Assembly (NCBI GenBank): GCA_019634975.1 | Contig: JAHCAI010000004.1 | Span: 45,979-109,978, forward strand | DNA length: 64,000 nt | DNA from: Burkholderiales bacterium | Lineage (GTDB): Bacteria; Pseudomonadota; Gammaproteobacteria; Burkholderiales; SG8-41 | Direction: 5' to 3' | Shown here: in pieces, positions 5,812 to 57,444 of the stretch | Numbering within the stretch: position 1 is the first letter of the stretch | Layout: each line of letters begins with the position of its first letter | Made by a program: the position numbers and the translations under genes | Notes under the pieces: model-generated | What the model saw: the letters and a program-made list of their open reading frames with translations, nothing else | Told to the model about the DNA's origin: nothing | Database searches by the model: none

Positions 5812-5838
5812 TAAGTAGTTGATTTTATTAAAATTTTT
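5812..5838 (+). repeat. AT-rich intergenic motif, copy A (TAAGTAGTTGATTTTATTAAAATTTTT)
   Basis: Read directly. Aligns with copies C-F. The opposite strand reads AATCAACTACTTA (WATCAANNNNTTR). Overlaps the last codons and stop of the DMT gene. Confidence 0.7.
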
Positions 5839-6589
5839 GTAAGGTGCTGCGCCGTGCAAGCGCGATGCCGGTGAGCACCAGGGCGGCACCGGCGAACTGC
5901 AGGGCACCGAGGGTTTCGCCCAGCAACAGCCACGCGAACAGCGTCGCCATCACCGGTTGCAGCAGCAGGCCCACCGATGAGAACACTGCGGGCAGATGGG
6001 CCATTGCCCAGGCAATCAGGCTCTGGCCGATGACCTGCGCGCACAGCGCGATGCCGATCAGTTTCATCCATCCTGCGCCGCTGTCCGGCAGCAGCTGATC
6101 GCCGGACAGCCAGGCCAGCGGCAGCAGCAGCAAGGCCATCACCGTGCTGCTCCAGGCCATCAGGCTCGCGGTCGGCATGTATGCGCGCAGCCGGGTCACC
6201 GCAATCTGGTAGGCCGCGTAGAACATCGCGGTGATCACGCCGAGGCCGTCGCCGAGCAGCGCCGCGCCGCCTTGGCCGAAGCTGGCGCCGATCAGCAGCA
6301 GCGTGCCGGCCATCGCTGCGGCGAGTCCGGCGACGAACAGTTTTCGCGGCAATTGACCCCAGAGCAGCCACGCCGCCATCGTGACGAAAATCGGCGCGAG
6401 GTTGGCCAGCAGCGTGGTATTGGCAATGGAGGTCAGCAGGATCGACCAGTGCCACACGGCAAGGTCGCCCGCAAAAAAGGCTCCCACGGCAAACAGCCTG
6501 CCGCGATGCGCGCGGAAATGGCTGCGCTGGCGGACCATGCCCTCGCTCGCCAGCGTCCACAGCCACAGCAGCGGCAATGCCAGGAACAC
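5828..6589 (-). CDS. DMT superfamily (EamA-like) transporter; start uncertain, conserved N-terminus extends to about 6715
   Basis: Multi-TM protein with two EamA-type halves. The first canonical start is GTG 6589, but the same frame upstream encodes LNKPPAAWLPLLALFAGATAIATAPLFVKVSETGPVATAFWR, an EamA-like TM1, with no ATG/GTG/TTG. Confidence 0.8.
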   Translation of the reverse strand: MFLALPLLWLWTLASEGMVRQRSHFRAHRGRLFAVGAFFAGDLAVWHWSILLTSIANTTLLANLAPIFVTMAAWLLWGQLPRKLFVAGLAAAMAGTLLLIGASFGQGGAALLGDGLGVITAMFYAAYQIAVTRLRAYMPTASLMAWSSTVMALLLLPLAWLSGDQLLPDSGAGWMKLIGIALCAQVIGQSLIAWAMAHLPAVFSSVGLLLQPVMATLFAWLLLGETLGALQFAGAALVLTGIALARRSTLQKF

Positions 6590-6711
6590 GCGCCAGAAGG
6601 CGGTTGCAACGGGCCCGGTCTCACTGACCTTGACGAACAGCGGCGCTGTCGCAATCGCTGTCGCGCCGGCGAACAGGGCGAGGAGCGGCAGCCATGCTGC
6701 CGGCGGCTTGT

Positions 6712-7173
6712 TCAGGGCGGTGGCCTTCCGTCAGGTGTGTGGCGGCGGCCGCGATGCCGCAGTGCATGGTAGACCCCGGCTATGATCATCAGATCAAGCA
6801 GCCCGGCTGCTATGCCGAAAACGAGCCGCCCTTCCAGCTCTGAAGCCGGCGCTTTTTTGGCGGAGGACACGGCGCCGCTTGTCGTACTGGTGGTACGGGT
6901 GAAATGGCGTTCGCCCGGGCCGAAGGCAATCCAGTTGAATATGGCGATGAAGGCGCACAGCGCGATCAGGGCGGACGCCGCCGCCAGCCGCGGCAGAAAG
7001 CGGAACATGAACATGCCGAAGCCGGCCGCAAAAAACACGGTGCCGGTCAACCACAGGATCGCTGCCGGCACTCTCGGTCCGGATGCGCTCACCGGGAATT
7101 GTCCCGATGCCGCCGCCATGACGACGAACCCCATGGCCATGAAAAAGGCGCCCCCGGCAAGCGCCAGGATCAA
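6712..7173 (-). CDS. hypothetical 4-TM membrane protein (153 aa)
   Basis: TTG 7173 lies 5 nt after GAGGAG. The longer track ORF (to 7296) would overlap the upstream enoyl-CoA hydratase gene. Four hydrophobic segments. No domain recognised. Confidence 0.45.
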   Translation of the reverse strand: MILALAGGAFFMAMGFVVMAAASGQFPVSASGPRVPAAILWLTGTVFFAAGFGMFMFRFLPRLAAASALIALCAFIAIFNWIAFGPGERHFTRTTSTTSGAVSSAKKAPASELEGRLVFGIAAGLLDLMIIAGVYHALRHRGRRHTPDGRPPP

Positions 7174-7222
7174 GGGAACTCCTCGCGCGGGCTGCCGGGT
7201 TCCGGCCGGGGATTCGTCCCGC

Positions 7223-7999
7223 CTAGCGCCCCTTGAACCCGGGTTTTCGTTTTTCAATGAAAGCCGCCATGCCTTCCTTCTGGTCCTCGGAGGCAAACAG
7301 CATCTGCAGCGTGCGCGTTTCCAGCGTCAGTCCCGTTTCCAGCGAAGCATCCATGCCGCGGATCACCGACTCCTTGGTTTGCTGGATGGCCAGCGGCGGC
7401 AGCTCGGCGATCTGCGCGGCCATGGCCACCGCGCGCTTCTCGACCTCGGCATCCGGCACGATCTCGCTGACCAGCCCCATTTCGCTGGCCTCGCGGGCGC
7501 CAAACAGGTCTCCGGTGAGCACATAGCGCATGGCCTTGTACTTGCCGACCGTGCGCGGGAAGCGCTGGGTGCCGCCGCCGCCGGGGATGATGCCGATTTT
7601 CACCTCGGGCTGTCCGAATTTGGCCGATTCCCCGGCAATGATGATGTCGCAGGTCATCGCCAGCTCGCAGCCGCCGCCCAGCGCGAAGCCGCTGACTGCG
7701 GCGATCACCGGCTTCGGGCAGGCGTAGATGGTGCGCCACATTTTCTGGGTGCCGCGCAGCAGCATGTCGATCGTCGATGCGTTCGCCATTTCCTTGATGT
7801 CGGCACCGGCGGCGAAGGACTTTTCATTGCCGGTGAGCACGATGCAGCGCACGGATTCGTCTTCGCCCATCTCGGTCAGGTACTGCCCGATCAGCCGCCG
7901 CACTTCCAGGTTCAGCGCATTGCGCGCCTCGGGCCGGTTGATGCGGATCAGGCCAACGCCCTCGGCGGGGCGCTCGGTGATGACGACGGGTGCATTCAT
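7223..7999 (-). CDS. enoyl-CoA hydratase/isomerase family protein
   Basis: Crotonase-fold motifs LTGNEKSFAAGADIKEM and AAVSGFALGGGCELAMTCD. 258 aa. Confidence 0.9.
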   Translation of the reverse strand: MNAPVVITERPAEGVGLIRINRPEARNALNLEVRRLIGQYLTEMGEDESVRCIVLTGNEKSFAAGADIKEMANASTIDMLLRGTQKMWRTIYACPKPVIAAVSGFALGGGCELAMTCDIIIAGESAKFGQPEVKIGIIPGGGGTQRFPRTVGKYKAMRYVLTGDLFGAREASEMGLVSEIVPDAEVEKRAVAMAAQIAELPPLAIQQTKESVIRGMDASLETGLTLETRTLQMLFASEDQKEGMAAFIEKRKPGFKGR

Positions 8000-8040
8000 G
8001 AACGGCTCCTGGTGGCTTGTTCGGTAACGGCGCGGGCGGA

Positions 8041-8076
8041 CAAAACGGAAACGGGCCCCGCGCGGAGCCCGTTCCG
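8041..8076 (-). terminator. putative rho-independent terminator downstream of the Bug gene 8089..9066
   Basis: The minus strand reads CGGAACGGGC-tccgcgcgg-GCCCGTtTCCG followed by TTTTG. One bulge in the stem. Confidence 0.55.
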
Positions 8077-8088
8077 GAGAACAGCGGC

Positions 8089-9066
8089 TTACTGCTTGGC
8101 GAGGCCGATATCGACCAGCACCGCCTTGATGTCGTTGTAATCCTTGGCGATGTCCTTGCTGAACTGGGCATGGCCGACGAAGTCGTCCGACCAGTAGTTT
8201 TTCTCGAGATCGGCCTTCCAGTCCGGGTTCGACGCCGCCTTGCGCAGCACGCCCTCCCAGTAGGCAATCTGCGCCGGCGTGATGTCCTTCGGCGCCATGA
8301 TTGCGCGCCAGCCGCCGTAGACCAGGTTGGCACCCTGCTCCTTCCAGGTCGGCACCTGGGCGAAGGCGCCGGGAAAGCGCTTGTCCGCCGATACTCCGAC
8401 CACGCGCAACCGCCCCTCGGCAACATGCCCGGCGACATTGCCGGCCGCCGTGGTGACCAGATCGATGTGACCGCCCAGCAGCTGGGTGATCGCCTCCGCC
8501 GAGCCCTTGAAGGCAATCGCCTTAAGGTTGCGCGCGTTGACTCCGATGCTTTTTGCCAGCAGCCCGGCGGCGATGTGGTTGTGGCTGCCCAGCGTGGTGG
8601 CGAAGCCGAGCGCCACCGACTGGGGGTTTTCCTTCAGCCTTGCGATCAGGTCCTTGCCGGTCTTGATCGGCGAGTTGGCGTTGACTGCGAACACCACGTA
8701 GTCATTGAACAGCGAGGCCACCGGCGTGAAGTCCATGTAGCTCAGCGGGCTGGTGCCGACGATGTGGTTGGTCAGCAGCGCCGTGGTGCCGATCAGCAGC
8801 GTGTGCGGATCGCCCTTCCTCTGGTTGACGTAATTGAAGGCGATCGAGCTGCCGCCGCCGGGACGGTTGACCACGGTCAGCGAGGTCGGGATCAGCTTGC
8901 CCTCGACAATGGCCCTTTCGACCGCGCGCGCGGTCTTGTCGTTGCTGCCCCCGGGGGCGGAGCCGACGACGATTTCGACGTTGCGGCTCGGTGACCAGCT
9001 TTGCTGGGCCTGGGCCGCGGGTACCGCCAGGGTGGCGGCGGCGAGAACTGCGATCAGCGATTTCAA
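8089..9066 (-). CDS. Bug family (TctC-like) periplasmic substrate-binding protein
   Basis: TTG 9066 lies 5 nt after GAGGAG. Signal peptide LIAVLAAATLAVPAAQAQ. VEIVVGSAPGGSNDKTAR and VVNRPGGGS motifs. The 764-aa track ORF is a run-through of this frame. Confidence 0.8.
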   Translation of the reverse strand: MKSLIAVLAAATLAVPAAQAQQSWSPSRNVEIVVGSAPGGSNDKTARAVERAIVEGKLIPTSLTVVNRPGGGSSIAFNYVNQRKGDPHTLLIGTTALLTNHIVGTSPLSYMDFTPVASLFNDYVVFAVNANSPIKTGKDLIARLKENPQSVALGFATTLGSHNHIAAGLLAKSIGVNARNLKAIAFKGSAEAITQLLGGHIDLVTTAAGNVAGHVAEGRLRVVGVSADKRFPGAFAQVPTWKEQGANLVYGGWRAIMAPKDITPAQIAYWEGVLRKAASNPDWKADLEKNYWSDDFVGHAQFSKDIAKDYNDIKAVLVDIGLAKQ

Positions 9067-9089
9067 GGGATTCTCCTCGGGACGGTGGA

Positions 9090-10055
9090 TTAAAGCTGCT
9101 TGATGCCGGCTTTCTTGATGACGTTGGCGTACTTCTCGGTCTCGGCGCGGATGAACTTGCCGAACTCCTCGATGGTGCCGCCCTTGGTGATCAGGCCGTC
9201 GCGGTCGAAACGCTCGCGGACGTCCTTCATCGCCAGCGCCTTGTTCACGTCGGCATTGACCTTGTTGACGATGTCCTTCGGGACCTTGCTCGGCGCCATC
9301 AGGCCGAACCAGTTGCTGGCCTCGTAACCCTTGACTCCGGATTCGTGGAAAGTGGGGATGTCGGGCACCGCGGGGAAACGCTCCAGGCTGCTGATGGCGA
9401 TCGGGCGCAGGCGGCCGGACTTGATATGCGGCACCAGCGCCGGCACGCCGCTGAACACCATCTCGACATTGCCGGCAATGGCATCGGTGATGGAGGGCGT
9501 GTTGCCCTTGTACGGGACATGAACGATGTTGATGCCGGCCATGTATTTCAGCAGTTCGCCGGCCATGTGGTTGGAGCTGCCGAGACCGGCGTGTCCGTAG
9601 TTGAGCTGGCCGGGCCGCGCCTTGGCCAGCGCGATCAGTTCCTTGACATTCTTCGCCGGCAGCGAGGGATGCGCGGCGAGCAGTGCGGCGCCCTGCACGC
9701 ACCACACCACCGGCTGGAAATCGCGGGCGGTGTTGTACGGGGGCTTGGCATACAGCGTCATGTTGATGGCATTGGAGGCGCCCCCCATGAACAGTGTGTA
9801 GCCGTCCGGCGCGGCGGTTGCGGCGAGCTCCGAGCCGATGTTGGTGCCGCCGCCGGGACGGTTGTCGACGACCACCTGCTGGCCCCACATCTCGGTGACC
9901 TTGGCGGCCACCGTGCGCGCCGTGTAATCGGTATTGCCTCCGGCCGCATAGGGCACGATGATGCGCACCGTGCGCGCCGGCCAGTTCTGCGCCAGTACCG
10001 GCGCCGCTGCCACCAGCAGCCCGAGTCCCGCAATGAAACCGTTGATTTTCCTCAT
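9090..10055 (-). CDS. Bug family (TctC-like) periplasmic substrate-binding protein
   Basis: ATG 10055 is preceded by AGGAGG. Signal peptide GLGLLVAAAPVLAQ. VRIIVPYAAGGNTDYTAR and VVDNRPGGG motifs. Its start overlaps the upstream stop (ATGA). Confidence 0.85.
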   Translation of the reverse strand: MRKINGFIAGLGLLVAAAPVLAQNWPARTVRIIVPYAAGGNTDYTARTVAAKVTEMWGQQVVVDNRPGGGTNIGSELAATAAPDGYTLFMGGASNAINMTLYAKPPYNTARDFQPVVWCVQGAALLAAHPSLPAKNVKELIALAKARPGQLNYGHAGLGSSNHMAGELLKYMAGINIVHVPYKGNTPSITDAIAGNVEMVFSGVPALVPHIKSGRLRPIAISSLERFPAVPDIPTFHESGVKGYEASNWFGLMAPSKVPKDIVNKVNADVNKALAMKDVRERFDRDGLITKGGTIEEFGKFIRAETEKYANVIKKAGIKQL

Positions 10056-11065
10056 TTTTCCTCCTTCGTTGAGGCGGTTGCCCGCACTTCGTTGTTGAGT
10101 GGATTGCCGCGGTGCCAGTGCCCGAGGTTGGCCAGGAACATCTCGCACACCCGGTCGTCGTTGCCCAGCGCCGCTGCCGAATTGTGCGGCGAAACCAGCA
10201 CATTGGGCAGCTCCCACAGCGCAGACTCCGCCGGCAGGGGTTCCTTTTCGAACACATCGAGATAGGCACCGCCGAGCCGGCCGTCGCGCAAGGCGGCGAC
10301 CAGCGCAGTTTCGTCGATGATCTCGCCGCGCGCAACATTGATGATGCGGGCCCCCGGAGCCAGGCGCCCGAGCATGTCCGCATTGATCAGGCCGCGGGTT
10401 TCGTCAGTCAGCGGCGCCGCGAGCACCAGCCAGTCGGCTCGCGGCAGCAGCGTCGCAAGTTGCGGGGGTGGATGCAGTTCGTCAACCGGATCGCCGGGCT
10501 GCAGCGGGCTGCGGCGGATGCCGATGACCTTGAGGCCCAGCACCCGCGCCAGCCGGGCGATTTCGCGGCCGATGCTGCCCAGGCCGTAGATCAGCATGGT
10601 CTGGCCGGCAAGATCGCGCGGAACGTCGGGCACCCGCATCGGATCCCAGCGATGTTCGCTCTGGGCACGGATCCAGCGCGGCATGTTGCGCGCGAGCATC
10701 AACAGGCCGGCGATCGCCGTCTGCGCGATCGGCACGGCGGTGGAACCCGCCGAGGTGCTCAGGCGCACCCCGCGTCCGAGCATTTCGCTGAAGATCGGAT
10801 GATCGACGCCGGCATTGAACACATGCATCCATTTCAGCGCCGGTGCCTTGCGCACGGCGGAAAAAAACTGGCGGCCGTGCAGCGGAATGACGTCCGAGGA
10901 GAAAAAGGCGAGATCGAGCCGTGCGCAATCGGCGGCCTCTATGCGTCCCTCGGGGTCGGCGGGGAGCACGACCAGCTCCAGGGCCACACCGAGCTGCCGT
11001 GCCCGCGCGACGAGATCGGCGCCGCGTTCGGCGTGCAGTCGGTGGGAGACGAGCAGGGTGGTCAT
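10052..11065 (-). CDS. D-isomer-specific 2-hydroxyacid dehydrogenase family protein
   Basis: NAD-binding GLGSIGREIARLARVLGLKVIGIRR, then NVARGEIIDE and the SPHNSA catalytic region. 337 aa. Confidence 0.85.
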   Translation of the reverse strand: MTTLLVSHRLHAERGADLVARARQLGVALELVVLPADPEGRIEAADCARLDLAFFSSDVIPLHGRQFFSAVRKAPALKWMHVFNAGVDHPIFSEMLGRGVRLSTSAGSTAVPIAQTAIAGLLMLARNMPRWIRAQSEHRWDPMRVPDVPRDLAGQTMLIYGLGSIGREIARLARVLGLKVIGIRRSPLQPGDPVDELHPPPQLATLLPRADWLVLAAPLTDETRGLINADMLGRLAPGARIINVARGEIIDETALVAALRDGRLGGAYLDVFEKEPLPAESALWELPNVLVSPHNSAAALGNDDRVCEMFLANLGHWHRGNPLNNEVRATASTKEEK

Positions 11066-11175
11066 TGCAAGGGGGCGCGGCAGGCAGTGAGCGGCGGAAG
11101 AGCGGAGATTTTAACCGCTCTTTGCTACCATGCACGACCTGGCGCAAGGCCTGACCTCTCCGGAAAGTCCATTCA

Positions 11176-12309
11176 ATGGAAATCGACACCCTGGAACTGA
11201 CAAAGCAGCTGATTGCGCGACCCTCGGTCTCTCCCGAGGATGCGGGATGCCTCGACCTCGTCATGGCGCAGCTGAAGCCGCTGGGTTTCGACTGCGAGAT
11301 CATCGCCATGAACGGCGTCACCAACCTCTGGGCGCGCCGCGGCCGCGCCGCGCCGCTGGTCTGCTTCGCGGGACATACCGATGTGGTGCCCACCGGCCCC
11401 CTCGAGAACTGGGACATCGATCCGTTCACGCCGACGGTCCGCGACGGCGTGCTGCATGGCCGCGGCGCCTGCGACATGAAGACCTCGCTGGCCGCTTTCG
11501 TCGTGGCGATCCGCGAATTCGTGCGAGCCAACCCCGACCACTCCGGTTCACTGGCGGTGATGTTCACCTCCGACGAGGAGGGTCCGGCCACCGACGGCAC
11601 GGTGCGCGTGGTCGAGGCGCTGGCGCGCCGCGGCGAGAAGCTCGATTACTGCATCGTCGGCGAGCCGACCTCGGTCAAGCGGCTTGGCGACATGATCAAG
11701 AACGGGCGCCGCGGCTCGCTGACCGGCATCCTCACCGTACAGGGCGTGCAGGGCCATGTTGCCTACCCGCAGATGGCGCGCAACCCGATCCACGAAGTCG
11801 CGCCGGCCATCGCCGAACTGGCCGCAGCCGAATGGGACCGCGGCAACGAATACTTTCCGCCGACCACCTGGCAGATTTCCAATTTCAGCGCCGGCACCGG
11901 CGCCAACAACGTCATCCCCGGCACCGCGCGCGTCCAGTTCAACTTCCGCTTTTCCACCGCGAGCACGGTCGAGTCGCTGCAGACCCGGGTGCACGGCATC
12001 CTCGACAAGCACGACCTCAAGTACGACCTCGAATGGCGCCTCGACGGCCGGCCCTTCCTGACGCCGAAGGGCGATCTCGTGGCAGCGGTGTCGCGCGCGA
12101 TCAGGGAAGTCACGGGCGTCGACACCGAACTGTCGACGACCGGCGGCACCTCCGACGGCCGTTTCATCGCCGACATCTGCCCGCAGGTCGTCGAGTTCGG
12201 ACCCACCAACGCCACCATTCACAAGGTCAACGAGCGCCTGCCCGTGGCGGAGATCGAGCCGCTGCAGAACATCTACCGGCGCATCCTGGAGATCCTGCTG
12301 CGGCAATGA
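11176..12309 (+). CDS. dapE: succinyl-diaminopimelate desuccinylase
   Basis: M20 peptidase with [30 protein letters not shown] and SDEEG motifs. 377 aa. Confidence 0.9.
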
Positions 12310-12357
12310 GAGTCACGCAGGGGGTGTGAAAATGCGCCCGATCCTTGATAGAGTGGA

Positions 12358-31806: not shown

Positions 31807-33210
31807 TCAGGCCTTGAGCAAAGGACGCAGCTTGGTGACGCTGCCGACTTTCTCGAGGCCCCACACCGCGTCGCAGAGCTTGCGCGCGCGCGCCTTGCCG
31901 AGGATGGGCGCCATCAGGTGATAGCACTTCTCGTCGACCTCGGCGCGGGTCATCGGGTTCTGCGCGGTGCCGCGCACGGCCTTGACGTGGTTGCGCAGCC
32001 TGCGGCCGCCCTTCAGCGTCAGTTCGACGATGCCCTGGCGCGAGGGCATCGCGCGGGTCAGCGCGTCGTCGCCGAGCAGAGTGATGCGCTTGCGCAGGTC
32101 GAGCACCTGCCTGTCGAACATGCGCTTCTCGTCGTGCGAGGACTCGAAGGTGACGATGCCGTCGATCAGCATCACCGCGCACATGTGCTGCATGCAGATG
32201 TCGGGCATGTTGCGGTTGTCGGTGGTGTTGGCGCCCTGGTGAGCGACGCGGATCACCAGCTTCTCGACGTCGGCAGCCTTGATGCCGTGCTTGCGGATCA
32301 GTTCCAGCAGGCCGTCGAGCGGCGCCTGGATCGGCGAGCCGACCGACCAGCGCTTGATGTTGGTGTTCATGATCTCGTAGGTCTTGCCGAGATCCTTGAT
32401 CAGCCGCTTCGGATCCGGCTTGCGGCCGATGCGGCGGGTCTCGTCGTAGGCGATGTAGAAATTGCGTTCGCCCGAGAACACGTCCTCCACCGCGGTAAAG
32501 CCGCGCGACACCATCGAGGCGGCCGCCGTGCCGTTGCGCGCCGGCATGCCGCCGAAGTCGAAAGCTTTCTCGATATGCTCCTCGTCGCGCATCCAGCAGG
32601 AGATGCCCGAGCACTGCTGCGCGGTGTAGGAGAGGGCGTGGCGCATGCCCTTGTAATCCAGTCCGGCCAGCAGCGAAGCTGCCGCCGCGGCGCCGAAGCT
32701 GGGGCCGAAGCTGTGCGTCGAGTGGCCGACCTGGCGGAAATCATAGGGGTGCAGCGACAGGTTGATGCGCGCGCAAAGGTCGTAGCCGAGTGCGACCGCG
32801 CGCAGCAGGCGGGTGCCGTTCGATTTCTCGCGCTCGCCCATCGCCAGTGCGGCGGGCACCACCGCGCAACCGGGATGCGACAGCGAGGGCGCGTGGGAGT
32901 CGTCGGTTTCGTCGGCGTGCGCCAGCATGCCGTTGATATGCGCGGCCTGCTCGGCATTGGTGACGATGTCCGAGCCGATCACCAGCGCCTGCGGCGCGCC
33001 GCCCAGGGTTTTCGCGTAGGCGATGGCTTTCTCGCCGGGCAGCAGGCGCGAACCCGAGACCATCGCGGCGATGGTGTCGAGCAGGTGGTGCTTGGTCTTC
33101 TCCGCGACTTCCCGGGGCAGCGGTTTTTTCGCGGCGGCGGCCATATAGGTCGCCAGGGTTTTCATCAGCGGGGACACCGCGGTCTTGGACGCTTTCGATT
33201 TGCTGCTCAT
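31807..33210 (-). CDS. MmgE/PrpD family protein
   Basis: 467 aa. HHLLDTIAAMVSG and NGMLAHADETDDSH motifs. Its start overlaps the SDR stop (ATGA). Confidence 0.8.
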   Translation of the reverse strand: MSSKSKASKTAVSPLMKTLATYMAAAAKKPLPREVAEKTKHHLLDTIAAMVSGSRLLPGEKAIAYAKTLGGAPQALVIGSDIVTNAEQAAHINGMLAHADETDDSHAPSLSHPGCAVVPAALAMGEREKSNGTRLLRAVALGYDLCARINLSLHPYDFRQVGHSTHSFGPSFGAAAAASLLAGLDYKGMRHALSYTAQQCSGISCWMRDEEHIEKAFDFGGMPARNGTAAASMVSRGFTAVEDVFSGERNFYIAYDETRRIGRKPDPKRLIKDLGKTYEIMNTNIKRWSVGSPIQAPLDGLLELIRKHGIKAADVEKLVIRVAHQGANTTDNRNMPDICMQHMCAVMLIDGIVTFESSHDEKRMFDRQVLDLRKRITLLGDDALTRAMPSRQGIVELTLKGGRRLRNHVKAVRGTAQNPMTRAEVDEKCYHLMAPILGKARARKLCDAVWGLEKVGSVTKLRPLLKA

Positions 33211-33983
33211 GGCATGATCACTCCGCCGTTGATGTGGATGGATTGTCCGGTGATGTAGCGCGCGTCGGGTCCGCAGAGCATGCGCACCATCGCCGCGATT
33301 TCCTGGGGCTGACCGCGCCGGCCGACCAGCGGCAGCGTCCTGCGGTGATCCGGGCGTTCGGGCGCGCCGGGCAGGCCGCGCACGGTATCGATGGGACCCG
33401 GCACCACGCAGTTCACCGTGATGTTGTGTTCGGCGAGATCGTGGGCGACGGCCTTGGCCATTGCCGCGAGGCCGCCCTTGGCCGTCACCACATGCGAGCG
33501 GTGCAGGGCGCCCTTGTGGCCGGTCAGGCCGCCGATGTAGACCAGCGAGCCGCCGCCGGCTTTGATCAGGTGGGGCAGCGCAGCCTGCGAAACCAGGAAG
33601 GCGCCGTCAAGCACCGTCGAAATCACGCGGTGCCATTCCTCGAGGGAAATCTTGTCGAAGGGCGTCTCCGCGCGGATCGCGGCATTGCTGACCGCCATGT
33701 CGAGCCGGCCGAACTGCTTTACGGTTTCGTCGACGAGGTGTTTCACTGCGGCAGGATCGGTGATGTCGCCCATGCACAGCGCGGCCTTGCCGCCCGCCTT
33801 CTCGATCATGGCGACGGTTTCCTCGCCGGCCTCGCGCGAGGTGTTGGCATTGATCATCACCTTGGCACCGCCTGCGGCAAGCGCGCGCGAGATGGCGCGG
33901 CCGATGTTGCGCGCGCCACCGGTGACCAGCGCGACCTTGCCGGCGAACTCGTCGCCGCGCCGCATTGCAATCTCATAGGCCAT
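33207..33983 (-). CDS. SDR family oxidoreductase (FabG-like fold, atypical active-site positions)
   Basis: TGGARNIGRAIS cofactor motif, SNAA, PGPIDT. 258 aa. The expected S...YxxxK positions read IGG...HVVTAK. Confidence 0.85.
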   Translation of the reverse strand: MAYEIAMRRGDEFAGKVALVTGGARNIGRAISRALAAGGAKVMINANTSREAGEETVAMIEKAGGKAALCMGDITDPAAVKHLVDETVKQFGRLDMAVSNAAIRAETPFDKISLEEWHRVISTVLDGAFLVSQAALPHLIKAGGGSLVYIGGLTGHKGALHRSHVVTAKGGLAAMAKAVAHDLAEHNITVNCVVPGPIDTVRGLPGAPERPDHRRTLPLVGRRGQPQEIAAMVRMLCGPDARYITGQSIHINGGVIMP

Positions 33984-33990
33984 AAATTCC

Positions 33991-34009
33991 CTTTATAATC
34001 AATAACTTA
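33991..34009 (-). repeat. AT-rich intergenic motif, copy B (short: TAAGTTATTGATTATAAAG)
   Basis: Read directly. Truncated relative to the other copies. The plus strand reads AATCAATAACTTA. Lies immediately upstream of the SDR start codon. Confidence 0.55.
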
Positions 34010-34252: not shown

Positions 34253-34774
34253 ATGCCGCTTTGCGCAAAGGGGCATGCAGTGAAAAAACCGAAGGTCGGC
34301 ATCGTCATGGGCAGCCAGAGCGACTGGGACGTGATGCGACATGCCGTCGACATGATGCGCGCCTTCGGTGTGCCCTTCGAAGCCCAGGTCGTGTCTGCCC
34401 ACCGCACGCCGGACCTGCTCTACCGCTATGCCGAGGCCGCGGCCCCGCGCGGCCTGCAGTGCATCATCGCCGGCGCCGGCGGCTCGGCGCATCTGCCGGG
34501 CATGCTCGCCGCGAAGACCATCGTGCCTGTGCTCGGCGTGCCGGTGACCTCGCGCGCGCTGAAAGGGCTTGATTCGCTGCTGTCCATCGTGCAGATGCCC
34601 AAGGGCGTGCCGGTGGCCACCTTCGCTGTCGGCGAGGCCGGCGCCGCCAACGCCGGGCTGTTCGCCGTGGCAATGCTCGCGCGCGAGGATGCCAAGCTGG
34701 CGAAAAAGCTCGCGACCTTCCGCAAGAAGCAGGTCGCCGCCGTGCGTGCGATGAAACTGCCGGTGAAAAAATGA
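34253..34774 (+). CDS. purE: 5-(carboxyamino)imidazole ribonucleotide mutase
   Basis: [11 protein letters not shown] and [11 protein letters not shown] motifs. The start could instead be GTG 34280. Confidence 0.9.
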
Positions 34775-39340: not shown

Positions 39341-39673
39341 ATGAACGCGAAAAAAAATCTGCCCGCAGCCTCCGAATACCGCCAGCTCGAGGATGTGGTC
39401 GGCTGCAAATGGTCGGTGTCGGTGCTGCAGGCGGTGGGCTCCGGCATTTCGCGGCCCGGCGCGCTGGAGCGCCATATCGCCGGAATCTCGACCAAGGTGC
39501 TGTCGGAACGCCTGCGCAAACTCACGCGTTACGGCCTGCTCGACAAGCAGGTGTATGCCGAAGTGCCGCCGCGCACCGAGTACGCGCTGACGGCCTACGG
39601 GCAGAAGTTGCTGCGCATCATCAGCCAGATCCGATCCCTCGACGAGGCTATCCGGAATACCGGCGAGCGTTGA
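39341..39673 (+). CDS. HxlR family transcriptional regulator
   Basis: 110 aa. CKWSVSVLQAV...ISTKVLSERLRKLTRYGLL...PPRTEYALT winged-helix pattern. Divergent from the redox-fold gene. Confidence 0.8.
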   Translation: MNAKKNLPAASEYRQLEDVVGCKWSVSVLQAVGSGISRPGALERHIAGISTKVLSERLRKLTRYGLLDKQVYAEVPPRTEYALTAYGQKLLRIISQIRSLDEAIRNTGER

Positions 39674-39684: not shown

Positions 39685-39711
39685 TAAGTATTTGTTTTTA
39701 TTGATATTTTT
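39685..39711 (+). repeat. AT-rich intergenic motif, copy C (TAAGTATTTGTTTTTATTGATATTTTT)
   Basis: Read directly. Lies between the hxlR-like stop and the tsaC start. Confidence 0.7.
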
Positions 39712-39735
39712 ATTACACTGCGAGATACTCGGGAG

Positions 39736-40725
39736 ATGACGCATCCCGCATCAAAAACCGACATCAACTACGCCGCCGCGCAACTCAAGGCCGGCGAACT
39801 CGTTGCATTCCCCACCGAAACCGTCTACGGCCTCGGCGCCGATGCCTCAAACGCAGAAGCCGTGCAGAAGATCTACGCCGCCAAGGGCCGGCCCTCGAAC
39901 CATCCGCTGATCGTGCACATTGCCGACGCCGTGCAGCTCGCCAACTGGGCGCGCGACATTCCGCCGGCCGCGCATGTGCTCGCCAAAACATTCTGGCCCG
40001 GCCCGCTGACACTGGTGCTGAAACGCCATCCGGAAGTCCCCGATGCCGTCACCGGCGGCCAGGACACCGTCGCGATCCGCGTGCCCTCGCACCCGGTCGC
40101 GCAGGCGCTGCTGCGTGAATTCGGCGGCGGCGTGGCCGCGCCCTCGGCCAATCGTTTCGGCCGCGTGTCGGCCACCACCGCCGCGCATGTGCGCGAGGAA
40201 TTCGGTGACACGGTTGCCTGCGTGCTCGACGGCGGCGCGGCCGATGTCGGCATCGAATCCACCATTGTCGACTGCTCGCGCGCGACACCCAGCCTGCTGC
40301 GCCCCGGCTGGATCACGCCGCAGCAGCTCGAAGCCGCACTCGGTGCGCCGCTGGCCGCGCCCGATGCCGATGCGCCGCGCGTCTCCGGCACGCTGGAAAA
40401 ACACTACTCGCCGCAGACCCCGGTGATGCTGATGGAAGGCGATCTGATCATTGAACTCGCGCACAGCCTGACGCGCCAGGGCAAACGCGTGGCGGTGCTG
40501 GCGCGGACGGCGTTGCAGCCCCTGATCGAAAAAATCGTGTGGCGGGCGGCGCCGGCGGATGCGGCGGGTTACGCGCATGAGCTGTATGCCAATCTGCGCG
40601 AGCTGGATCAGGCGGGCTGCGACGCGATCCTCGTCGAGCAGCCGCCGGAGGACGCCGATTGGCTGGCGATCCGCGACCGGCTCAACCGCGCGGCGGCGGG
40701 GTCGGGTGAGACCTCGCCGGACTGA
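39736..40725 (+). CDS. tsaC: L-threonylcarbamoyladenylate synthase (YrdC domain plus Sua5 C-terminal domain)
   Basis: FPTETVYGLGADA, KGRPSNHPLIVH and SANRFG motifs. 329 aa. Confidence 0.9.
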   Translation: MTHPASKTDINYAAAQLKAGELVAFPTETVYGLGADASNAEAVQKIYAAKGRPSNHPLIVHIADAVQLANWARDIPPAAHVLAKTFWPGPLTLVLKRHPEVPDAVTGGQDTVAIRVPSHPVAQALLREFGGGVAAPSANRFGRVSATTAAHVREEFGDTVACVLDGGAADVGIESTIVDCSRATPSLLRPGWITPQQLEAALGAPLAAPDADAPRVSGTLEKHYSPQTPVMLMEGDLIIELAHSLTRQGKRVAVLARTALQPLIEKIVWRAAPADAAGYAHELYANLRELDQAGCDAILVEQPPEDADWLAIRDRLNRAAAGSGETSPD

Positions 40726-46243: not shown

Positions 46244-46268
46244 TAAGTATTTGATTATATTTATTTTT
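46244..46268 (+). repeat. AT-rich intergenic motif, copy D (TAAGTATTTGATTATATTTATTTTT)
   Basis: Read directly. It fills essentially the whole 37-nt spacer between two minus-strand genes. Confidence 0.7.
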
Positions 46269-47006
46269 CTAGCGGGTGCTGCGGTCAAGGAACAGCTTCA
46301 CCTGCTGCACGAGCTCCCGTTCCCGGCCGTTGAAGAAGTGATCCGCGCCGGCGACGCTGATCTGGCCCGAGCCGCGGATGTTGCGGATCGCCGCCGCCCG
46401 TTTTGCGGCGTTGTCGAGCACCGCGGGCAGATCCTTGTCGCCCATCAGGTCGAGCACCGGCGCCTTGAAGGTTTCGGGTTTGCTGAACTCGCCCGAGATG
46501 CCGATGGCGACGAAGGCGTCGATCGCCGGCGCGCCGGGCGTGTTGAGGAACACATTGCTCATGCGCGCGCCGAGGCTGTGCGCGACGATGGCCACCTTCT
46601 TGTGGCCCTGCTTGCGCAGGAATTCAACCGCTACCGCGATGCGTTCCGCGGCTTCCGGGAACAGCGGCGGGTACTGGTCTCCGCGCGCCTCGGAGGCGAG
46701 CACCGGCATCTGCACCGACAGCGTCGCGTACCCCTGCTCCGAGAGATTGCTGCGCAGCGGGTTGATCAGGCCCCAGTCCGGGTGCACGCCGAGACCGTGG
46801 ATGACAATGACCCCGGCTTGCGCCTTGGCATTGGGCGCATGGATGGCGAGAAACTTGCGGCCCGAGGGCAGTGCAAGCCGGATCGGGTCGCCGACGAGAA
46901 TGGCGGGCGTGATTTCGTCAGCCCAGCGCTGTTCGCGGGCGTAGTCGGCCGCGGCCCAGGCATTGAGGCTCAGCACCGCGAGAAACAGGATGATCAGTTT
47001 GCGCAT
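46269..47006 (-). CDS. secreted alpha/beta hydrolase
   Basis: Signal peptide MRKLIILFLAVLSLNAWA. Nucleophile elbow AHSLGA. 245 aa. Its start overlaps the upstream stop (TGATG). Confidence 0.65.
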   Translation of the reverse strand: MRKLIILFLAVLSLNAWAAADYAREQRWADEITPAILVGDPIRLALPSGRKFLAIHAPNAKAQAGVIVIHGLGVHPDWGLINPLRSNLSEQGYATLSVQMPVLASEARGDQYPPLFPEAAERIAVAVEFLRKQGHKKVAIVAHSLGARMSNVFLNTPGAPAIDAFVAIGISGEFSKPETFKAPVLDLMGDKDLPAVLDNAAKRAAAIRNIRGSGQISVAGADHFFNGRERELVQQVKLFLDRSTR

Positions 47007-50165: not shown

Positions 50166-50233
50166 GATCGGGCTCCAGAAAGGGAGTGAGTGAGCGGGCA
50201 TGTTAACCCCCGGCGCTGCCCGGAGCAATCATT

Positions 50234-50350
50234 TTTGTATGCAAAAATGGAATGCGATGGATTGCCAGAGATATATTTATATTAAATACTTGTTTTTATT
50301 GATAATTATAAATTGCCCAGAATCTTAAACAGGCGTATTATGCATACAAA
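50234..50350. promoter_or_regulatory. pair of inverted 10-mers (TTTGTATGCA / TGCATACAAA), candidate GntR operators
   Basis: Perfect reverse complements at 50234-50243 and 50341-50350. The second contains the palindrome TATGCATA and ends 11 nt before the gntR ATG. Confidence 0.35.
50283..50309 (+). repeat. AT-rich intergenic motif, copy E (TAAATACTTGTTTTTATTGATAATTAT)
   Basis: Read directly. Lies at the centre of the aminotransferase/gntR divergent region. Confidence 0.65.
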
Positions 50351-50361
50351 TAGAGATTGTC

Positions 50362-51057: not shown

Positions 51058-51207
51058 CGGGCGGGCGCGTGGTGAGCGAAGCAGGCAGGCGCAGACACCT
51101 TCCGGTCTTCGCCTTTGGGAATTCCGGGAAACCATGAAGATGAAAAATTCACGAACAAGCGGCAAATGCCGGGGATTCACGGGCTCGAAACCCACGGAGG
51201 CCGTGCG

Positions 51208-54108
51208 ATGAACGCCCCGGCACAAACGGCGCATGTCGCCCGGTCGTCGCCGGACCGCAGCACTCTTGCGCGCAGGCTGCGCCGCGAGATCCGCGGCGAG
51301 GTGCTGTTCGATGCCGCTTCCCGCGGCCGTTATTCCACCGATGCCTCGATCTACCAGATCGAACCCGTCGGCGTGGTGGTGCCGCGCGACGACAACGATG
51401 CGCTGGCGGCATTGCAGATCGGCATCGAGGCCGGCGTGCCGGTGCTGCCGCGCGGCGGCGGCACCTCGCAATGCGGCCAGACCGTCGGCGCCGCGCTGGT
51501 GCTCGACGTGTCGAAGCACCTCAATGAAATCACCGCCTTTGACCGCGATGCGCGCACGGTGACCGTGCAGCCCGGCATCGTGCTCGACCACCTCAATGCC
51601 TGGCTGAAGCCGCACGGGCTGTGGTTCCCGGTCGATGTCTCGACCAGCGCGCAGGCGACCATCGGCGGCATGACCGGCAACAATTCCTGCGGTTCGCGCT
51701 CCATCGAATACGGCAACATGGTGCACAACGTGCTGGGCATCGATGCCTGGCTCGCCGACGGCGAGGTCTGCCGCTTCGGCCTGCTGCCGCAGGACCTGTC
51801 GCGGCTCGACGGCAGCGAGCGTTACCGCGAGATCGTCCGCCGCATCGCCGCGATCGCGGCGCGCGAGGCCGAGGAAATCGAGCACCGCTATCCCAAGGTG
51901 CTGCGTCGCGTCGGCGGCTACAACCTCGACATGATGCTGCCGCCGGGCGCGAACATGGCGCACCTTCTGGTCGGTTCCGAGGGCACGCTGGCCTTCTCGC
52001 GGCGCATCGAGCTGAAGCTGTCGCCGCTGCCGAAGCACAAGACGCTGGGCATCTGCCATTTCCCGACTTTCTACCAGTCGATGGAGGCGCCGCAGCACAT
52101 CGTCGGGCTGAAGCCGGCGGCGGTCGAGCTGGTGGACGACACGATGATCGCGCTGGCGCGCAGCAACCCGGCCTTCCTGCCGGTCGTCAACCAGTGCGTG
52201 AAGGGCGAGCCCGCGGCAATCCTGCTGGTGGAATTCGCCGGCGAGGACCGCGAAGAGCAGATCCGCCGGCTGAGGCAGCTCTCCGAACTGATGGCCGACC
52301 GCGGCCTGCCCGGCAGCGTGGTCGAGGTCATCGACCCGGCGCTGCAGCGCGAATTCTGGGAGGTGCGCAAGGCGGGCCTCAACATCATGATGTCGATGAA
52401 GGGCGACGGCAAGCCGGTGTCCTTCATCGAGGACTGCGCGGTGCCGCTGGAGCACCTCGCCGAATACACCGACAAACTCACGCAGGTCTTCCACAAGCAC
52501 GGCACCAAGGGCACCTGGTACGCGCATGCCTCGGTCGGCTGCCTGCACGTGCGGCCGATCCTCGACATGCGCCGCGACGGCGCGCAGAAAATGCGCGCGA
52601 TCGCTGAGGAGGCCGCGGCGCTGGTGAAACAGTACAAGGGTTCATATTCCGGCGAGCACGGCGACGGCCTGGTGCGCTCGGAATGGATCGCGCCCTTCTT
52701 CGGGCCCAAGCTGACCGCTGCCTTCGGGGAAATCAAGGACCTGTTCGATCCGAAGGGCCTGATGAATCCGGGCAAGATCGTGCGCCCGTCGAAACAGGAT
52801 GACCGCAGCCTGTTCCGCTTCAAGCCGGGCTACGAGGCGAAACCCCCGGCGACGGCGCTCGACTGGAGCGAGTGGGGCGGTTTCGACAAGGCCGTCGAGA
52901 TGTGCAACAACAACGGCCATTGCCGCAAGTTCGACGCCGGCACGATGTGCCCCTCGTACCGGGTGACCCGCGAGGAACAGCACCTGACCCGCGGCCGGGC
53001 CAACACGCTGCGGCTGGCGCTGTCCGGGCAGCTGGGCCCGAACGCGCTGACCTCGACCGCGGTGCGCGACGCGATGGATCTTTGCGTGTCCTGCAAGGGC
53101 TGCAAGCGCGAATGCCCGACCGGCGTCGACATGGCGAAAATGAAAATCGAGTGGCTGCACCACTGGCGCCGCCATCACGGGCTGCCGCTTAAAGAGCGCC
53201 TGATTGCCTTCCTGCCGCGTTATGCGCCTTGGGCAAAGCGGGCAGCGCCGCTGCTCAATCTGCTGCAGCCGCTGGCAAAGCCCTTCCTCGGTTTTGCCTC
53301 GAAGCGCTCGCTGCCGGCCTGGCGCAGCGATGCCTTCGCCGCGTCCGCAAGCACGGATACGGCTGGCGGTCGTGAAGTCGTGCTGTTCGTCGACACTTTC
53401 AATACGTACTTCGAGCCGGAGAACGCGCGCGCCGCGCTGCAGGTGCTGCAGGCCGCCGGCTACACGGTGCATCTGCCGCAGCCGGAGGGCGACAAACGGC
53501 CGCTGTGCTGCGGCCGTACTTTCCTTGCCGGCGGGCTGGTCGAGGAGGCTCGCGCCGAGGCGCAGCGCATGCTTGCCGTGCTGAAACCGTACATCGAACG
53601 CGGCCTGCCGGTGGTCGGACTCGAACCGTCCTGCCTGTTCTCGCTGCGCGACGAATTCCTGTCGCTGCTGCCGGGCGCCGACGCCCCGGCGCTGGCGCGG
53701 CAGGCGCTGCTGTTCGAGGAATTCCTCGCCCGCGAGCACGACGCCGGGCGGCTGCAGCTGAAGCTGAAGGCGCTGCACCAGGGCAAGGCCCTGCTGCACG
53801 GCCATTGCCACCAGAAGGCTTTCGCCGCGATGCCGGCAGTGCAGAAAGTGCTGAGCCTGGTGCCGGGCCTGAAGGTGGAGACCATCGAATCGAGCTGCTG
53901 CGGCATGGCCGGCAGCTTCGGTTACGAAGCGCGCCATTACGAGACCTCGATGCGCATGGCGGAGCTGTCGCTGCTGCCGAAAGTGCGCGAAGCCGGCGAA
54001 CAGACACTGATCGTCGCCGACGGCACCAGTTGCCGCCACCAGATCCACGACGGCGCCCGGCGCGAGGCGCTGCACGTCGCGCGCGTGCTGGCGGCGGCGC
54101 TCGCCTGA
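51208..54108 (+). CDS. FAD-binding and (Fe-S)-binding domain-containing oxidoreductase (YdiJ/GlcD-GlcF fusion type)
   Basis: FAD/PCMH domain (VVPRDDNDALAALQIGIEAGVPVLPRGGGTS), ferredoxin-type cluster motif CVSCKGCKRECPTG, and C-terminal CCG repeats (PLCCGRT, SSCCGMAGSFG). ATG 51208 lies after GGAGG. Confidence 0.85.
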   Translation: MNAPAQTAHVARSSPDRSTLARRLRREIRGEVLFDAASRGRYSTDASIYQIEPVGVVVPRDDNDALAALQIGIEAGVPVLPRGGGTSQCGQTVGAALVLDVSKHLNEITAFDRDARTVTVQPGIVLDHLNAWLKPHGLWFPVDVSTSAQATIGGMTGNNSCGSRSIEYGNMVHNVLGIDAWLADGEVCRFGLLPQDLSRLDGSERYREIVRRIAAIAAREAEEIEHRYPKVLRRVGGYNLDMMLPPGANMAHLLVGSEGTLAFSRRIELKLSPLPKHKTLGICHFPTFYQSMEAPQHIVGLKPAAVELVDDTMIALARSNPAFLPVVNQCVKGEPAAILLVEFAGEDREEQIRRLRQLSELMADRGLPGSVVEVIDPALQREFWEVRKAGLNIMMSMKGDGKPVSFIEDCAVPLEHLAEYTDKLTQVFHKHGTKGTWYAHASVGCLHVRPILDMRRDGAQKMRAIAEEAAALVKQYKGSYSGEHGDGLVRSEWIAPFFGPKLTAAFGEIKDLFDPKGLMNPGKIVRPSKQDDRSLFRFKPGYEAKPPATALDWSEWGGFDKAVEMCNNNGHCRKFDAGTMCPSYRVTREEQHLTRGRANTLRLALSGQLGPNALTSTAVRDAMDLCVSCKGCKRECPTGVDMAKMKIEWLHHWRRHHGLPLKERLIAFLPRYAPWAKRAAPLLNLLQPLAKPFLGFASKRSLPAWRSDAFAASASTDTAGGREVVLFVDTFNTYFEPENARAALQVLQAAGYTVHLPQPEGDKRPLCCGRTFLAGGLVEEARAEAQRMLAVLKPYIERGLPVVGLEPSCLFSLRDEFLSLLPGADAPALARQALLFEEFLAREHDAGRLQLKLKALHQGKALLHGHCHQKAFAAMPAVQKVLSLVPGLKVETIESSCCGMAGSFGYEARHYETSMRMAELSLLPKVREAGEQTLIVADGTSCRHQIHDGARREALHVARVLAAALA

Positions 54109-54112
54109 GCGG

Positions 54113-56137
<2,025 letters not shown>

Positions 56138-56164
56138 GTTTCCAGGGATGCGCCATTAAAGGGC

Positions 56165-56226
56165 CGTCATTCCGGCGCGATCCGGAATCCAGGACATCCT
56201 GGGTCCCGGCTTGCGCCGGGACGACG
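56165..56226. repeat. REP-like nested palindrome
   Basis: Two about 30-nt arms match at 24/30 positions in inverted orientation around CCAGGA-CA-TCCTGG. Each arm holds its own hairpin (TTCCGG-cgcga-CCGGAA; GTCCCGGC-ttgc-GCCGGGAC). Lies between convergent genes. Confidence 0.7.
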
Positions 56227-56269
56227 ATACTGTTCAGGTCGGGTGTTACAGAATTCAGAGCCCGATGGC

Positions 56270-57376
56270 TTAGAACTCGCGCGTGTATTGCCGGACCTTC
56301 GTTTCGTCGACGCGGATGCCCAGGCCCGGACCGGTCGGCACATCCAGATAGCCGCCGGAGAGCCGGATCGGATCGGTGACGATGTCGTCGGCGAGATAAG
56401 GGCTCGACAGGCTGACGCCCCAGTCCACCGCGGGAATGGCCGCGGCGAGATGCATCAGTCCGGCGCTGGCGATGCCGGCCTCGGCGATCTTGCAGGCGAG
56501 GTTGACCTTCATGTCCAGCGCTTCACACAGCAGCGCGGCATCCTGCACAGCCTGCAGTCCGCCCAGCTTGATGGTTTTTAGGCTGCAGCCCTGCGCGGCC
56601 TTCAGTTCGTGGTGGCGGCGCAGGTCGTCGAGGCTGTGCAGGCCTTCATCGACGCCGATTTTCACGCGGCTGGCTGCGGCGACGCGGGCCATGCCGGCGA
56701 CGTCATGCGCGGCGACCGGCTGTTCGAAGAATTCGATGCGGGTGTCGGCGATGCCGCGCACGAAGCGGATGGCTTCGTCCGGTGTCCAGGCCTGGTTGGC
56801 GTCGGCGCAGATCAGCACCTTGTCATCCTTGACCGAGCCAGCCACCGCGCGCGCCCGTTCGGCATCGGCTTCCGGGGTGTCGACGCCGACCTTGATCTTG
56901 ATCGCGACATAGCCCTCGGCCAGCCGCTTCCGCGTTTCGGCGATATCGCTTTCGGTGCTGCCGGTGCCGATCAGGCGCAGCGCCGGCACGCGCATGCGCT
57001 TCGCGCCGCCGAGCAGTTCATGCACCGGCTTGCCGCGTGCCTGGCCCAGCGCATCGAACAGCGCCATCTCGATCGCCGCCTTGGCGCTGTTGTTGCCGTA
57101 AAGGTACTGGCCGGCGCGGTGCATCACCCCCGGGATGTCATCCGCGGGCAGTCCTTCGAGCTTGTCGGCAAGGTGGCGGATCGCCGCAACCATGCTGCCC
57201 TGGGTTTCGCCGGTCATCGTCGGCGCCGATGCGGCCTCGCCCCAGCCGACGATGCCGTCGCTGGTTTCGATGCGCGCGAGCACGTTCTCCGCGTTGCGCA
57301 CTTCCTCGAAGGACATTTTCACCGGCTTGATCATCGGCAGGCTGATGGCGATGGCCTGTATTTGCTGGATGCGCAT
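56270..57376 (-). CDS. mandelate racemase / muconate lactonizing enzyme family protein (enolase superfamily)
   Basis: 368 aa. KIKVG, metal-ligand contexts CADANQAW, FFEQPV and GVDEGL. Confidence 0.8.
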   Translation of the reverse strand: MRIQQIQAIAISLPMIKPVKMSFEEVRNAENVLARIETSDGIVGWGEAASAPTMTGETQGSMVAAIRHLADKLEGLPADDIPGVMHRAGQYLYGNNSAKAAIEMALFDALGQARGKPVHELLGGAKRMRVPALRLIGTGSTESDIAETRKRLAEGYVAIKIKVGVDTPEADAERARAVAGSVKDDKVLICADANQAWTPDEAIRFVRGIADTRIEFFEQPVAAHDVAGMARVAAASRVKIGVDEGLHSLDDLRRHHELKAAQGCSLKTIKLGGLQAVQDAALLCEALDMKVNLACKIAEAGIASAGLMHLAAAIPAVDWGVSLSSPYLADDIVTDPIRLSGGYLDVPTGPGLGIRVDETKVRQYTREF

Positions 57377-57390
57377 GGTCGGATTCCGAG

Positions 57391-57415
57391 TAAAAAGCGG
57401 CGCCGCAGCGCCGCT
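57391..57415 (-). terminator. rho-independent terminator-like hairpin 15 nt upstream of the enolase-family start codon
   Basis: The minus strand reads AGCGGCGC-tgcg-GCGCCGCT then TTTTA: an 8-bp GC stem, a 4-nt loop and a T-run. Confidence 0.7.
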
Positions 57416-57417
57416 AT

Positions 57418-57444
57418 AAAAACATCAATAAAATCAAATACTTA
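57418..57444 (-). repeat. AT-rich intergenic motif, copy F (TAAGTATTTGATTTTATTGATGTTTTT)
   Basis: Read directly. Closest to the consensus. Lies between the Bug gene stop and a GC hairpin terminator. Confidence 0.75.

Follow-up and report, generated by a model that had tools for sequence, protein, structure and literature searches.

In Escherichia coli, the RIB/RIP elements (BIME-1) reportedly consist of a binding site for integration host factor (IHF) held between inverted REP palindromes and lie at the 3′ ends of transcription units. BIMEs have been described as protein-binding repeats (PMC2817692; PMC6907758), and the Correia/NEMIS elements of Neisseria carry an IHF site (PMC2229807). The recognition elements of IHF are a WATCAA near the centre of the site, a TTR four bases further 3′, and two steps, usually AA, 9 bp apart, where prolines intercalate, and strong sites also have an A-tract in the other half (PMC1874591; bioRxiv 10.1101/382655). 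The substrate of the IHF co-crystal structure is the 35-bp H′ site (bioRxiv 10.1101/382655). Here we describe an A+T-rich intergenic motif, six copies of which (A to F, named in coordinate order) lie in a stretch of 64,000 nucleotides from a Burkholderiales bacterium (assembly GCA_019634975.1, contig JAHCAI010000004.1, positions 45,979 to 109,978 of the forward strand; hereafter the window). On balance, its sequence favors a family of complete, high-affinity sites for IHF, a heterodimer that bends DNA, or for a close IHF/HU-fold counterpart in this lineage. Unlike RIB/RIP and Correia elements, it has no palindrome, inverted repeat, or larger scaffold, and the repeat is the predicted binding site itself.

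With RIB/RIP elements the motif shares the character of a repeated extragenic IHF-type site, often just past stop codons and between convergent or co-directional genes, but it lacks flanking REP palindromes or a hairpin, its flanks are unrelated, hairpins near it are not enriched, and some of its copies lie in divergent control regions or within an operon. Like Correia/NEMIS elements, it is a dispersed intergenic repeat with an IHF site (functional in Correia, predicted here), copies of which can supply promoter elements. However, Correia elements are miniature inverted-repeat transposable elements (MITEs) of 100–155 bp with terminal inverted repeats and known filled and empty sites, whereas the unit described here is the IHF-type site alone and shows no insertion polymorphism. 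The size of ~35 bp, the copy number, the extragenic location, and the lineage specificity recall REP and REPIN sequences, although REPs are G+C-rich imperfect palindromes whose hairpins are processed by RAYT transposases, and this motif is A+T-rich and unstructured. The likeness to canonical IHF sites such as lambda attP H′ lies in four elements in register, a block of ~35 bp, and the lack of dyad symmetry. Canonical sites are individually diverged, whereas the motif has tens to hundreds of near-identical chromosomal copies; in addition, the T of WATCAA is mostly A, TTR is always TTA, and binding is at the level of prediction.

An earlier note on this DNA, made by reading the letters, had placed six such copies in the window, and all six are there. 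A search with TAAGTATTTGATTTTATTGAT allowing up to three mismatches matched the 64-kb window only at 5812 (+), 39685 (+), 46244 (+), 50283 (+), and 57444 (-), five long matches against 0.00 expected from 100 shuffles. Identity to the 27-mer proposed in that note, over its 26 specified positions, was 23/26 for copy A, 25/26 for C, 23/26 for D, 21/26 for E, and 26/26 for F. The copies had been described as A+T-rich spots in G+C-rich DNA, and indeed no other 30-bp stretch of the window, where the G+C content is 62–73% in 2-kb bins, reaches 77% A+T. Exact matches to the IHF core WATCAANNNNTTR number four in the window (0.26 expected, shuffle maximum 2) and correspond to copies A, B, D, and F, while copies C and E read AAACAA, in line with that note. 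Folding of each copy gave no hairpin (DNA minimum free energy of 0 to -1.1 kcal/mol, z-scores of -0.6 to +0.8), in agreement with the same note. An Rfam scan of the window identified no family, and a literature search on the motif sequence itself returned nothing relevant. The unit measures ~29–37 bp and has sharp boundaries, with flanks that are unrelated between copies. From the base frequencies of the flanks, conservation and A+T richness span approximately -8 to +28 relative to the T of TAAGT. The repeat unit is therefore real but slightly longer than the ~27–35 bp first proposed, and the conserved A+T-rich block is approximately as long as the 35-bp H′ co-crystal substrate.

The case for IHF rests on the reverse strand, where the consensus reads 5′-(T)ATAAAAATATCAATAAAAWCAAATACTTA-3′. 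The sequence of lambda attP H′ was checked against lambda-like phages, to which it was 100% identical, and was then aligned to the motif. In this alignment, with index 1 at the first A of ATAAAAAT on the reverse strand, all four IHF elements were found in register with H′. The A-tract (AAAAA) occupies motif index 3–7 (H′ 4–9), the first AA step 12–13 (TT at 13–14 of H′), WATCAA, which contains the second AA step (21–22), 17–22 (H′ 18–23), and TTA, as the TTR, 27–29 (TTG at 28–30 of H′). The two AA steps, 9 bp apart in the consensus and in H′ register, are those of both TCAA of a TTGAT-N4-TTGAT direct repeat, whose 9-bp period arises because the two kink steps form it. TTA is present in 6/6 window copies, with 0–1 mismatches at these three positions in 31 non-seeded copies (those not used to fetch the loci in which they lie). 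The A-tract is found in copies A, C, and F; in D it is displaced by 2 nt, in E it is weak, and B lacks it. WATCAA is exact in A, B, D, and F; the AAACAA of C and E recurs in ~60% of the wider family. The single core position that varies holds A or T in 99% of seeded copies and G in 1%, with no C. IHF reads DNA by the minor groove and by indirect readout, and this tolerance of A and T alone fits such a mode of recognition.

One genome per species was scanned for TAAGTATTTGNTTTTATTGAT, which yielded at least 116 stretches, and loci outside the window were studied as 8-kb pieces (L-numbers). Nearly all of the matches listed come from metagenome-assembled genomes (MAGs) of uncultured freshwater or soil Burkholderiales/Betaproteobacteria with 57–68% G+C, and many of these MAGs give 6–10 of the listed matches each. 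The few matches in other taxa (Coxiellaceae, Thermodesulfobacteriota, Psychrobacter, and some viral contigs) were given little weight because a base-composition estimate predicts a handful by chance in A+T-rich genomes. Profile and regular-expression searches uncovered many further diverged copies in the same loci: TAA....TTG[AT]TT matched 164 times in 785 kb against ~1.7 expected by our own base-composition calculation, and 61 of these 164 matches are non-seeded. Among loci fetched via tsaC/sua5, relatives with at least 80% protein identity carry other copies at ~0.4 per 10 kb, and relatives with at most 75% protein identity have no genuine-looking copies; the family is therefore clade-specific. 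Overall density is ~0.3–0.9 per 10 kb; at a few tenths of a copy up to about one per 10 kb, a genome would carry on the order of 100–400 copies. The earlier estimate of hundreds of copies is thus roughly right in order of magnitude.

As an unbiased sample of the family, we took the A+T-rich islands of G+C-rich loci, 91 of which contain no seed. The relaxed core WAWCAR-N4-TTR is present in 56 of these 91 islands, against 2.1 expected from shuffling (maximum 7), and the strict core in 18 against 1.1 expected. Among 58 degenerate core matches, the A-tract stands at its H′ position in 36, and the first AA step stands at its own in 33. Most A+T-rich spacer spots in this clade are then sites of this single type.

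The pattern of variation between copies follows the same elements. In 31 non-seeded paralogues there are no mismatches at T0, A1, T8, G9, W10, T11, and T12, and two at forward-strand T7, the sixth base of the core. The NNNN positions 3–6 have 6, 2, 3, and 8 mismatches, and the second half is the most variable, with 14/31 mismatches at G18 and likewise at T20. NNNN takes 29 different values among the 61 non-seeded matches to TAA....TTG[AT]TT. In 20 orthologous copies upstream of tsaC/sua5, the same TAA-nnnn-TTGtTT conservation is seen as among paralogues. The family of IHF or architectural sites that had been proposed is thereby upheld as a prediction, with all four elements at H′ spacing, TAA and TTGWTT invariant, and the strong excess of cores among seedless islands.

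Orthologous spacers were compared for presence or absence of the motif. At 10 independent loci, with coding flanks 75–93% identical, the partner always has the motif in the same place (filled on both sides at 10/10), and two sites flagged as absent proved to be diverged copies. Copy E is kept in L101, in an orthologous spacer with ~82% identical flanks; the L101 copy is nearer the consensus, although the spacer around it has diverged. Copy F is identical in the orthologous spacer of L015. Since the motif is kept in every orthologous comparison, selection is favored over insertion polymorphism. Among the loci aligned, no clean filled/empty orthologous pair was found, so there was no empty allele in which a target duplication could show. 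Synteny between L075 and the window is lost directly after the motif, and insertions of kilobase size distinguish L005 and L015 from the window.

Gene calls in these loci are crude, and the following counts are to be read accordingly. The direction of the motif relative to flanking genes is split 38:32, and of 105 classifiable sites, 24 are found where two genes converge and 11 where two genes diverge. Among spacers of the motif-selected loci, those that carry the motif make up 16% of the co-directional, 23% of the convergent, and 14% of the divergent ones; divergent spacers at first seemed depleted, but normalizing by spacer counts removed this impression. No polarity relative to GC skew of the KOPS or Chi kind was detected (83:70, p = 0.34), and the check for orientation bias that the earlier note called for thus found none by either measure. 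Sites are not associated with terminators either, as a hairpin plus T-run occurs at 39/164 sites (24%) vs. 100/245 control spacers (41%). Copies are intergenic: 19 appeared to be intragenic, but nearly all of these lie within ~200 nt of over-called starts or in short low-scoring open reading frames and are artefacts of gene calling, with one (L049) that is not explained in this way. In a macA-macB-like efflux operon of three MAGs (L066 7262–7291, L047, and L055), a conserved copy lies between the stop codon of the ABC ATPase gene and the ATG of the MacB-type permease gene. This ATG and the end of the unit overlap; a Shine-Dalgarno sequence is lacking, and translation initiates in a region formed by the U-rich motif end. 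Transcription must pass this copy, which therefore is not a transcription barrier at that conserved site.

On the reading we favor, one side of the protein would clamp the narrow minor groove of the A-tract, and two proline-tipped arms would intercalate at the AA steps 9 bp apart and kink the DNA, so that binding would fold ~35 bp of spacer DNA into a sharp U-turn. Purifying selection would keep such sites at all types of gene boundary, whichever way the site points, a distribution that points to a function at the level of the DNA, as an architectural element. At some sites the bend may be built into local regulation, as at copy C, which provides the -35 and upstream half of a promoter, and at copy E, which lies between operator-like palindromes; elsewhere, a general role in nucleoid organization is probable. 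What the analysis shows is the anatomy of the sequence, its excess over chance, its position-specific conservation, its retention at orthologous sites, and the absence of orientation bias; that IHF is the binder, that the DNA is bent here, and what the bend does are all things that we infer.

Several observations weigh against this reading. About 60% of copies carry A in place of the T of WATCAA. The copies are also more alike than IHF needs, with NNNN mostly GTAT and the central ATTGAT well kept, and their second half agrees with the high-affinity motif of H-NS, TCGATAAATT, at 7–8/10 positions. The conserved copy in the efflux operon stands directly against a start codon, and the predicted IHF footprint at copy C covers a -35 hexamer; there, IHF and RNA polymerase would compete, or the site has two alternative uses. 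Searches by tblastn with E. coli IhfA and IhfB gave no match in the window and the collected loci. To our knowledge, IHF is near-universal in Proteobacteria. The excess likeness of the copies implies extra constraints or a copy-and-paste origin, and, together with the difficulty of repeatedly evolving a 30-bp A+T block in G+C-rich DNA, it suggests a past copying mechanism.

Part of this excess conservation would be accommodated if another sequence-specific protein were the reader, either a global regulator recognizing the TTGAT repeat with its 9-bp period or an H-NS-like silencer nucleating on TTGATAWTTT. We consider this unlikely, although it has real points in its favor: the GTAT at NNNN in most copies and the ATTGAT, the restriction of the family to one clade, and, for H-NS, the match of the second half to the published motif (PMC6907758). 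This resemblance involves the least conserved part of the unit, the half most variable at G18 and T20, whereas invariance falls precisely on the IHF elements, and the four-element register with lambda H′ would have to be coincidence. For filaments of H-NS to form, an island of 30 bp is short. By established knowledge, the IHF and H-NS rows of one published motif table are presumably swapped. As printed, that table puts WATCAANNNNTTR under H-NS and TCGATAAATT under IHF (PMC6907758, Table 2). A mobile origin would address the likeness of the copies as well as the many sharply bounded, near-identical units dispersed over unrelated spacers in many genomes. Without copying, it is hard to see how a 30-bp A+T block could arise at hundreds of sites in DNA of 60–68% G+C; in addition, the unit often contains the stop codon of a flanking gene. 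Even so, we consider it improbable that the motif is a miniature mobile element of the REP or MITE kind, or what remains of one, moved by a transposase encoded elsewhere: there is no hairpin, flank frequencies reveal neither terminal inverted repeats nor target duplications, presence/absence polymorphism is absent from the 10 independent orthologous loci down to 75% flank identity, and decay is position-specific and not uniform. The same evidence leaves unsupported the tiny mobile-element relic that the earlier note had offered as an alternative.

Another candidate reading is a sigma-70 promoter module composed of a -35 TTGAYA and an upstream A+T-rich, UP-like element, so that the copies would be upstream halves of promoters. 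Copy C has such an arrangement (TTGATA-17 bp-GATACT-6 nt-ATG), which is conserved in 20 orthologous spacers. As an account of the family, we give this little credence: ~124 sites have no excess of -10-like hexamers 16–18 bp downstream (~3%, equal to background), by the crude gene calls, 24/105 classifiable sites separate the ends of convergent genes and 38 head into the 3′ end of an oppositely oriented gene, and the conserved efflux operon copy abuts a start codon. By reading, the reverse-strand consensus contains no -35-like hexamer. Least probable of all is a DNA-uptake sequence for natural transformation, similar to the Haemophilus uptake signal sequence (USS) with its core and phased A+T tracts. 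The motif is indeed orientation-neutral, clade-specific, over-represented, and kept at orthologous sites. Known uptake sequences occur about once per kb and within genes too, whereas the motif is intergenic at only ~0.3–0.9 per 10 kb, and its bipartite invariant pattern with a free NNNN matches IHF specifically.

Within the IHF reading, a bolder and rather doubtful proposal is that the motif is a REP-less counterpart of RIB/RIP: a bare, complete IHF site copied chromosome-wide by some mechanism, then selected as punctuation of gene boundaries, and reused as a promoter or operator scaffold throughout a clade of uncultured freshwater Burkholderiales. Copies would then act as anchors of bends, loops, or topological domains at gene boundaries.

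The window is gene-dense, with a coding share of 90% according to a crude GC3-based gene finder, and encodes several TctC/Bug-family receptors, as is typical for Burkholderiales. Copy A, a 29-bp unit at 5812–5840 (+) with the IHF-type core AATCAACTACTTA at 5812–5824 (-), lies between convergent genes, namely a FlK-like thioesterase gene that ends at 5791 and an EamA transporter gene on the - strand, the stop codon of which (TTA, 5828–5830) is inside the copy. Its reverse strand, ACAAAAATTTTAATAAAATCAACTACTTA, contains the A-tract, both AA steps, WATCAA, and TTA. Copy B, at 33981–34009 (-), is a degenerate unit with an exact core, AATCAATAACTTA, at 33997–34009 (+); it occupies the divergent spacer between a short-chain dehydrogenase gene (33207–33983, -) and a + strand gene at 34253, and it retains the first half, TAAGTTATTGATT, whereas the dehydrogenase gene's ATG and ribosome-binding region take the place of the A-tract half. 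The 29-bp copy D, at 46244–46272 (+) with the exact core AATCAAATACTTA at 46244–46256 (-), separates two co-directional - strand genes that encode a DUF3530/alpha-beta hydrolase and a PNPOx-like protein (start 46231), and the stop codon of the hydrolase gene (CTA, 46269–46271) is inside its end. Copy F, at 57416–57444 (-), is a 29-bp unit that matches the consensus perfectly, with the core AATCAAATACTTA at 57432–57444 (+). It follows the stop codon of a TctC-family gene (57450) and is itself followed by an intrinsic terminator hairpin (57415–57396) and the start of an MR/MLE enolase-superfamily gene (57376).

Copy C, a 29-bp unit at 39685–39713 (+) with the core AAACAAATACTTA, lies between same-strand genes, the stop codon of an HxlR-family gene at 39673 and the start of tsaC/sua5 at 39736. 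Inside it, TTGATA at 39701–39706 (+) is the -35 of a predicted tsaC/sua5 promoter, the -10 of which, GATACT at 39724–39729 (+), follows 17 bp later and 6 nt before the ATG. This was the promoter found in a scan of the window (one vs. 0.1 expected). In 20 distinct relatives (77–95% protein identity), the motif stands at a fixed distance from the tsaC/sua5 ATG, although the upstream gene varies, and the 20 orthologous spacers conserve TTGAYW-17 bp-nATAcT-6 nt-ATG. With a -10 hexamer that ends 6 nt before the ATG, the tsaC/sua5 mRNA is probably leaderless, its start site being predicted from the position of the hexamer. In relatives with at most 75% protein identity, the same spacer, ~130 nt upstream of the tsaC/sua5 homologue, lacks the motif and holds other short tandem or dispersed repeats, which are TTCTTGGCGTCTTGGCGG-like, CATCACCTCCTCC-like, or GTGACGAGTGACGAG-like (L146, L147, L150, L153, L155, L156, L158, L161, L163, L169, L178, L179, L182, and L183). 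Different lineages thus seem to have different spacer repeat families at tsaC/sua5.

Copy E, a 29-bp unit at 50283–50311 (+) with the core AAACAAGTATTTA, is located in a divergent spacer between a class-V aminotransferase gene (-) and a GntR/FCD regulator gene (start 50362). It lies almost exactly midway between two palindromic boxes, TTTTTGTATGCAAAAA at 50232–50247 and GTATTATGCATACAAAT at 50335–50351, both of which are conserved in the orthologous L101 spacer. These boxes are probably operators of the GntR-family regulator, and from the geometry, a sharp bend at copy E could bring the two operators together.

Several occurrences outside the window are recorded here as observations. In Psychrobacter sp. 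JCM 18903 (L094), an exact 21-mer of the motif at 5851–5879 lies 10 nt upstream of a CRISPR array (5890–6124) with 36-nt repeats and a 69–70 bp period, beside a gene of the Cas_VVA1548 family, and thus in the leader. IHF acts at the CRISPR leader in some CRISPR types, and the position of this match, at -39 to -11 of the first repeat, lends circumstantial support to the IHF reading. In three Thermodesulfobacteriota/Syntrophaceae MAGs (L042, L067, and L108), the exact 21-mer stands in the middle of a conserved segment of ~100 bp bounded by the inverted repeats GAGTCTGTAGAAAAAG ... CTTTTCCTACAGACTC, and possibly represents a small element, or else a regulatory cassette built around a central bend site. 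Eight viral contigs (L198, L199, L203, L205, L207, L208, L212, and L215), which form one family of ~45% G+C, carry the exact 21-mer in an identical non-coding context, with a terminator-like hairpin ~40 nt after it and adjacent open reading frames that match only domains of unknown function. The exact 21-mer contexts in other phyla and viral contigs have no interpretable neighbor genes, and by estimate several may be chance matches in A+T-rich DNA. At 4729–4772 of L129 there is a palindromic double core, TAATCAATTGATTA, in which two IHF-type cores overlap on opposite strands. Two 8-kb loci of a Coxiellaceae MAG (L019 and L117, 36–38% G+C) contain several related units, TAAGTATTTGATT(T/A)TA...TTTTTTATTACATG. 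These point to a separate gammaproteobacterial family with this type of site.

In the binning of metagenomic contigs, the motif can serve as a strong marker of lineage, and it flags a conserved, probably leaderless promoter of the essential gene tsaC/sua5. It also raises the question of how a protein-binding site multiplies without a transposon scaffold. If IHF binds, this clade marks a sizeable share of its spacers (14–23% in the motif-selected loci) with a near-optimal four-element site. It would then offer a clean natural system in which to study the role of chromosomal IHF sites at gene ends, a question shared with the RIB/RIP elements of E. coli.

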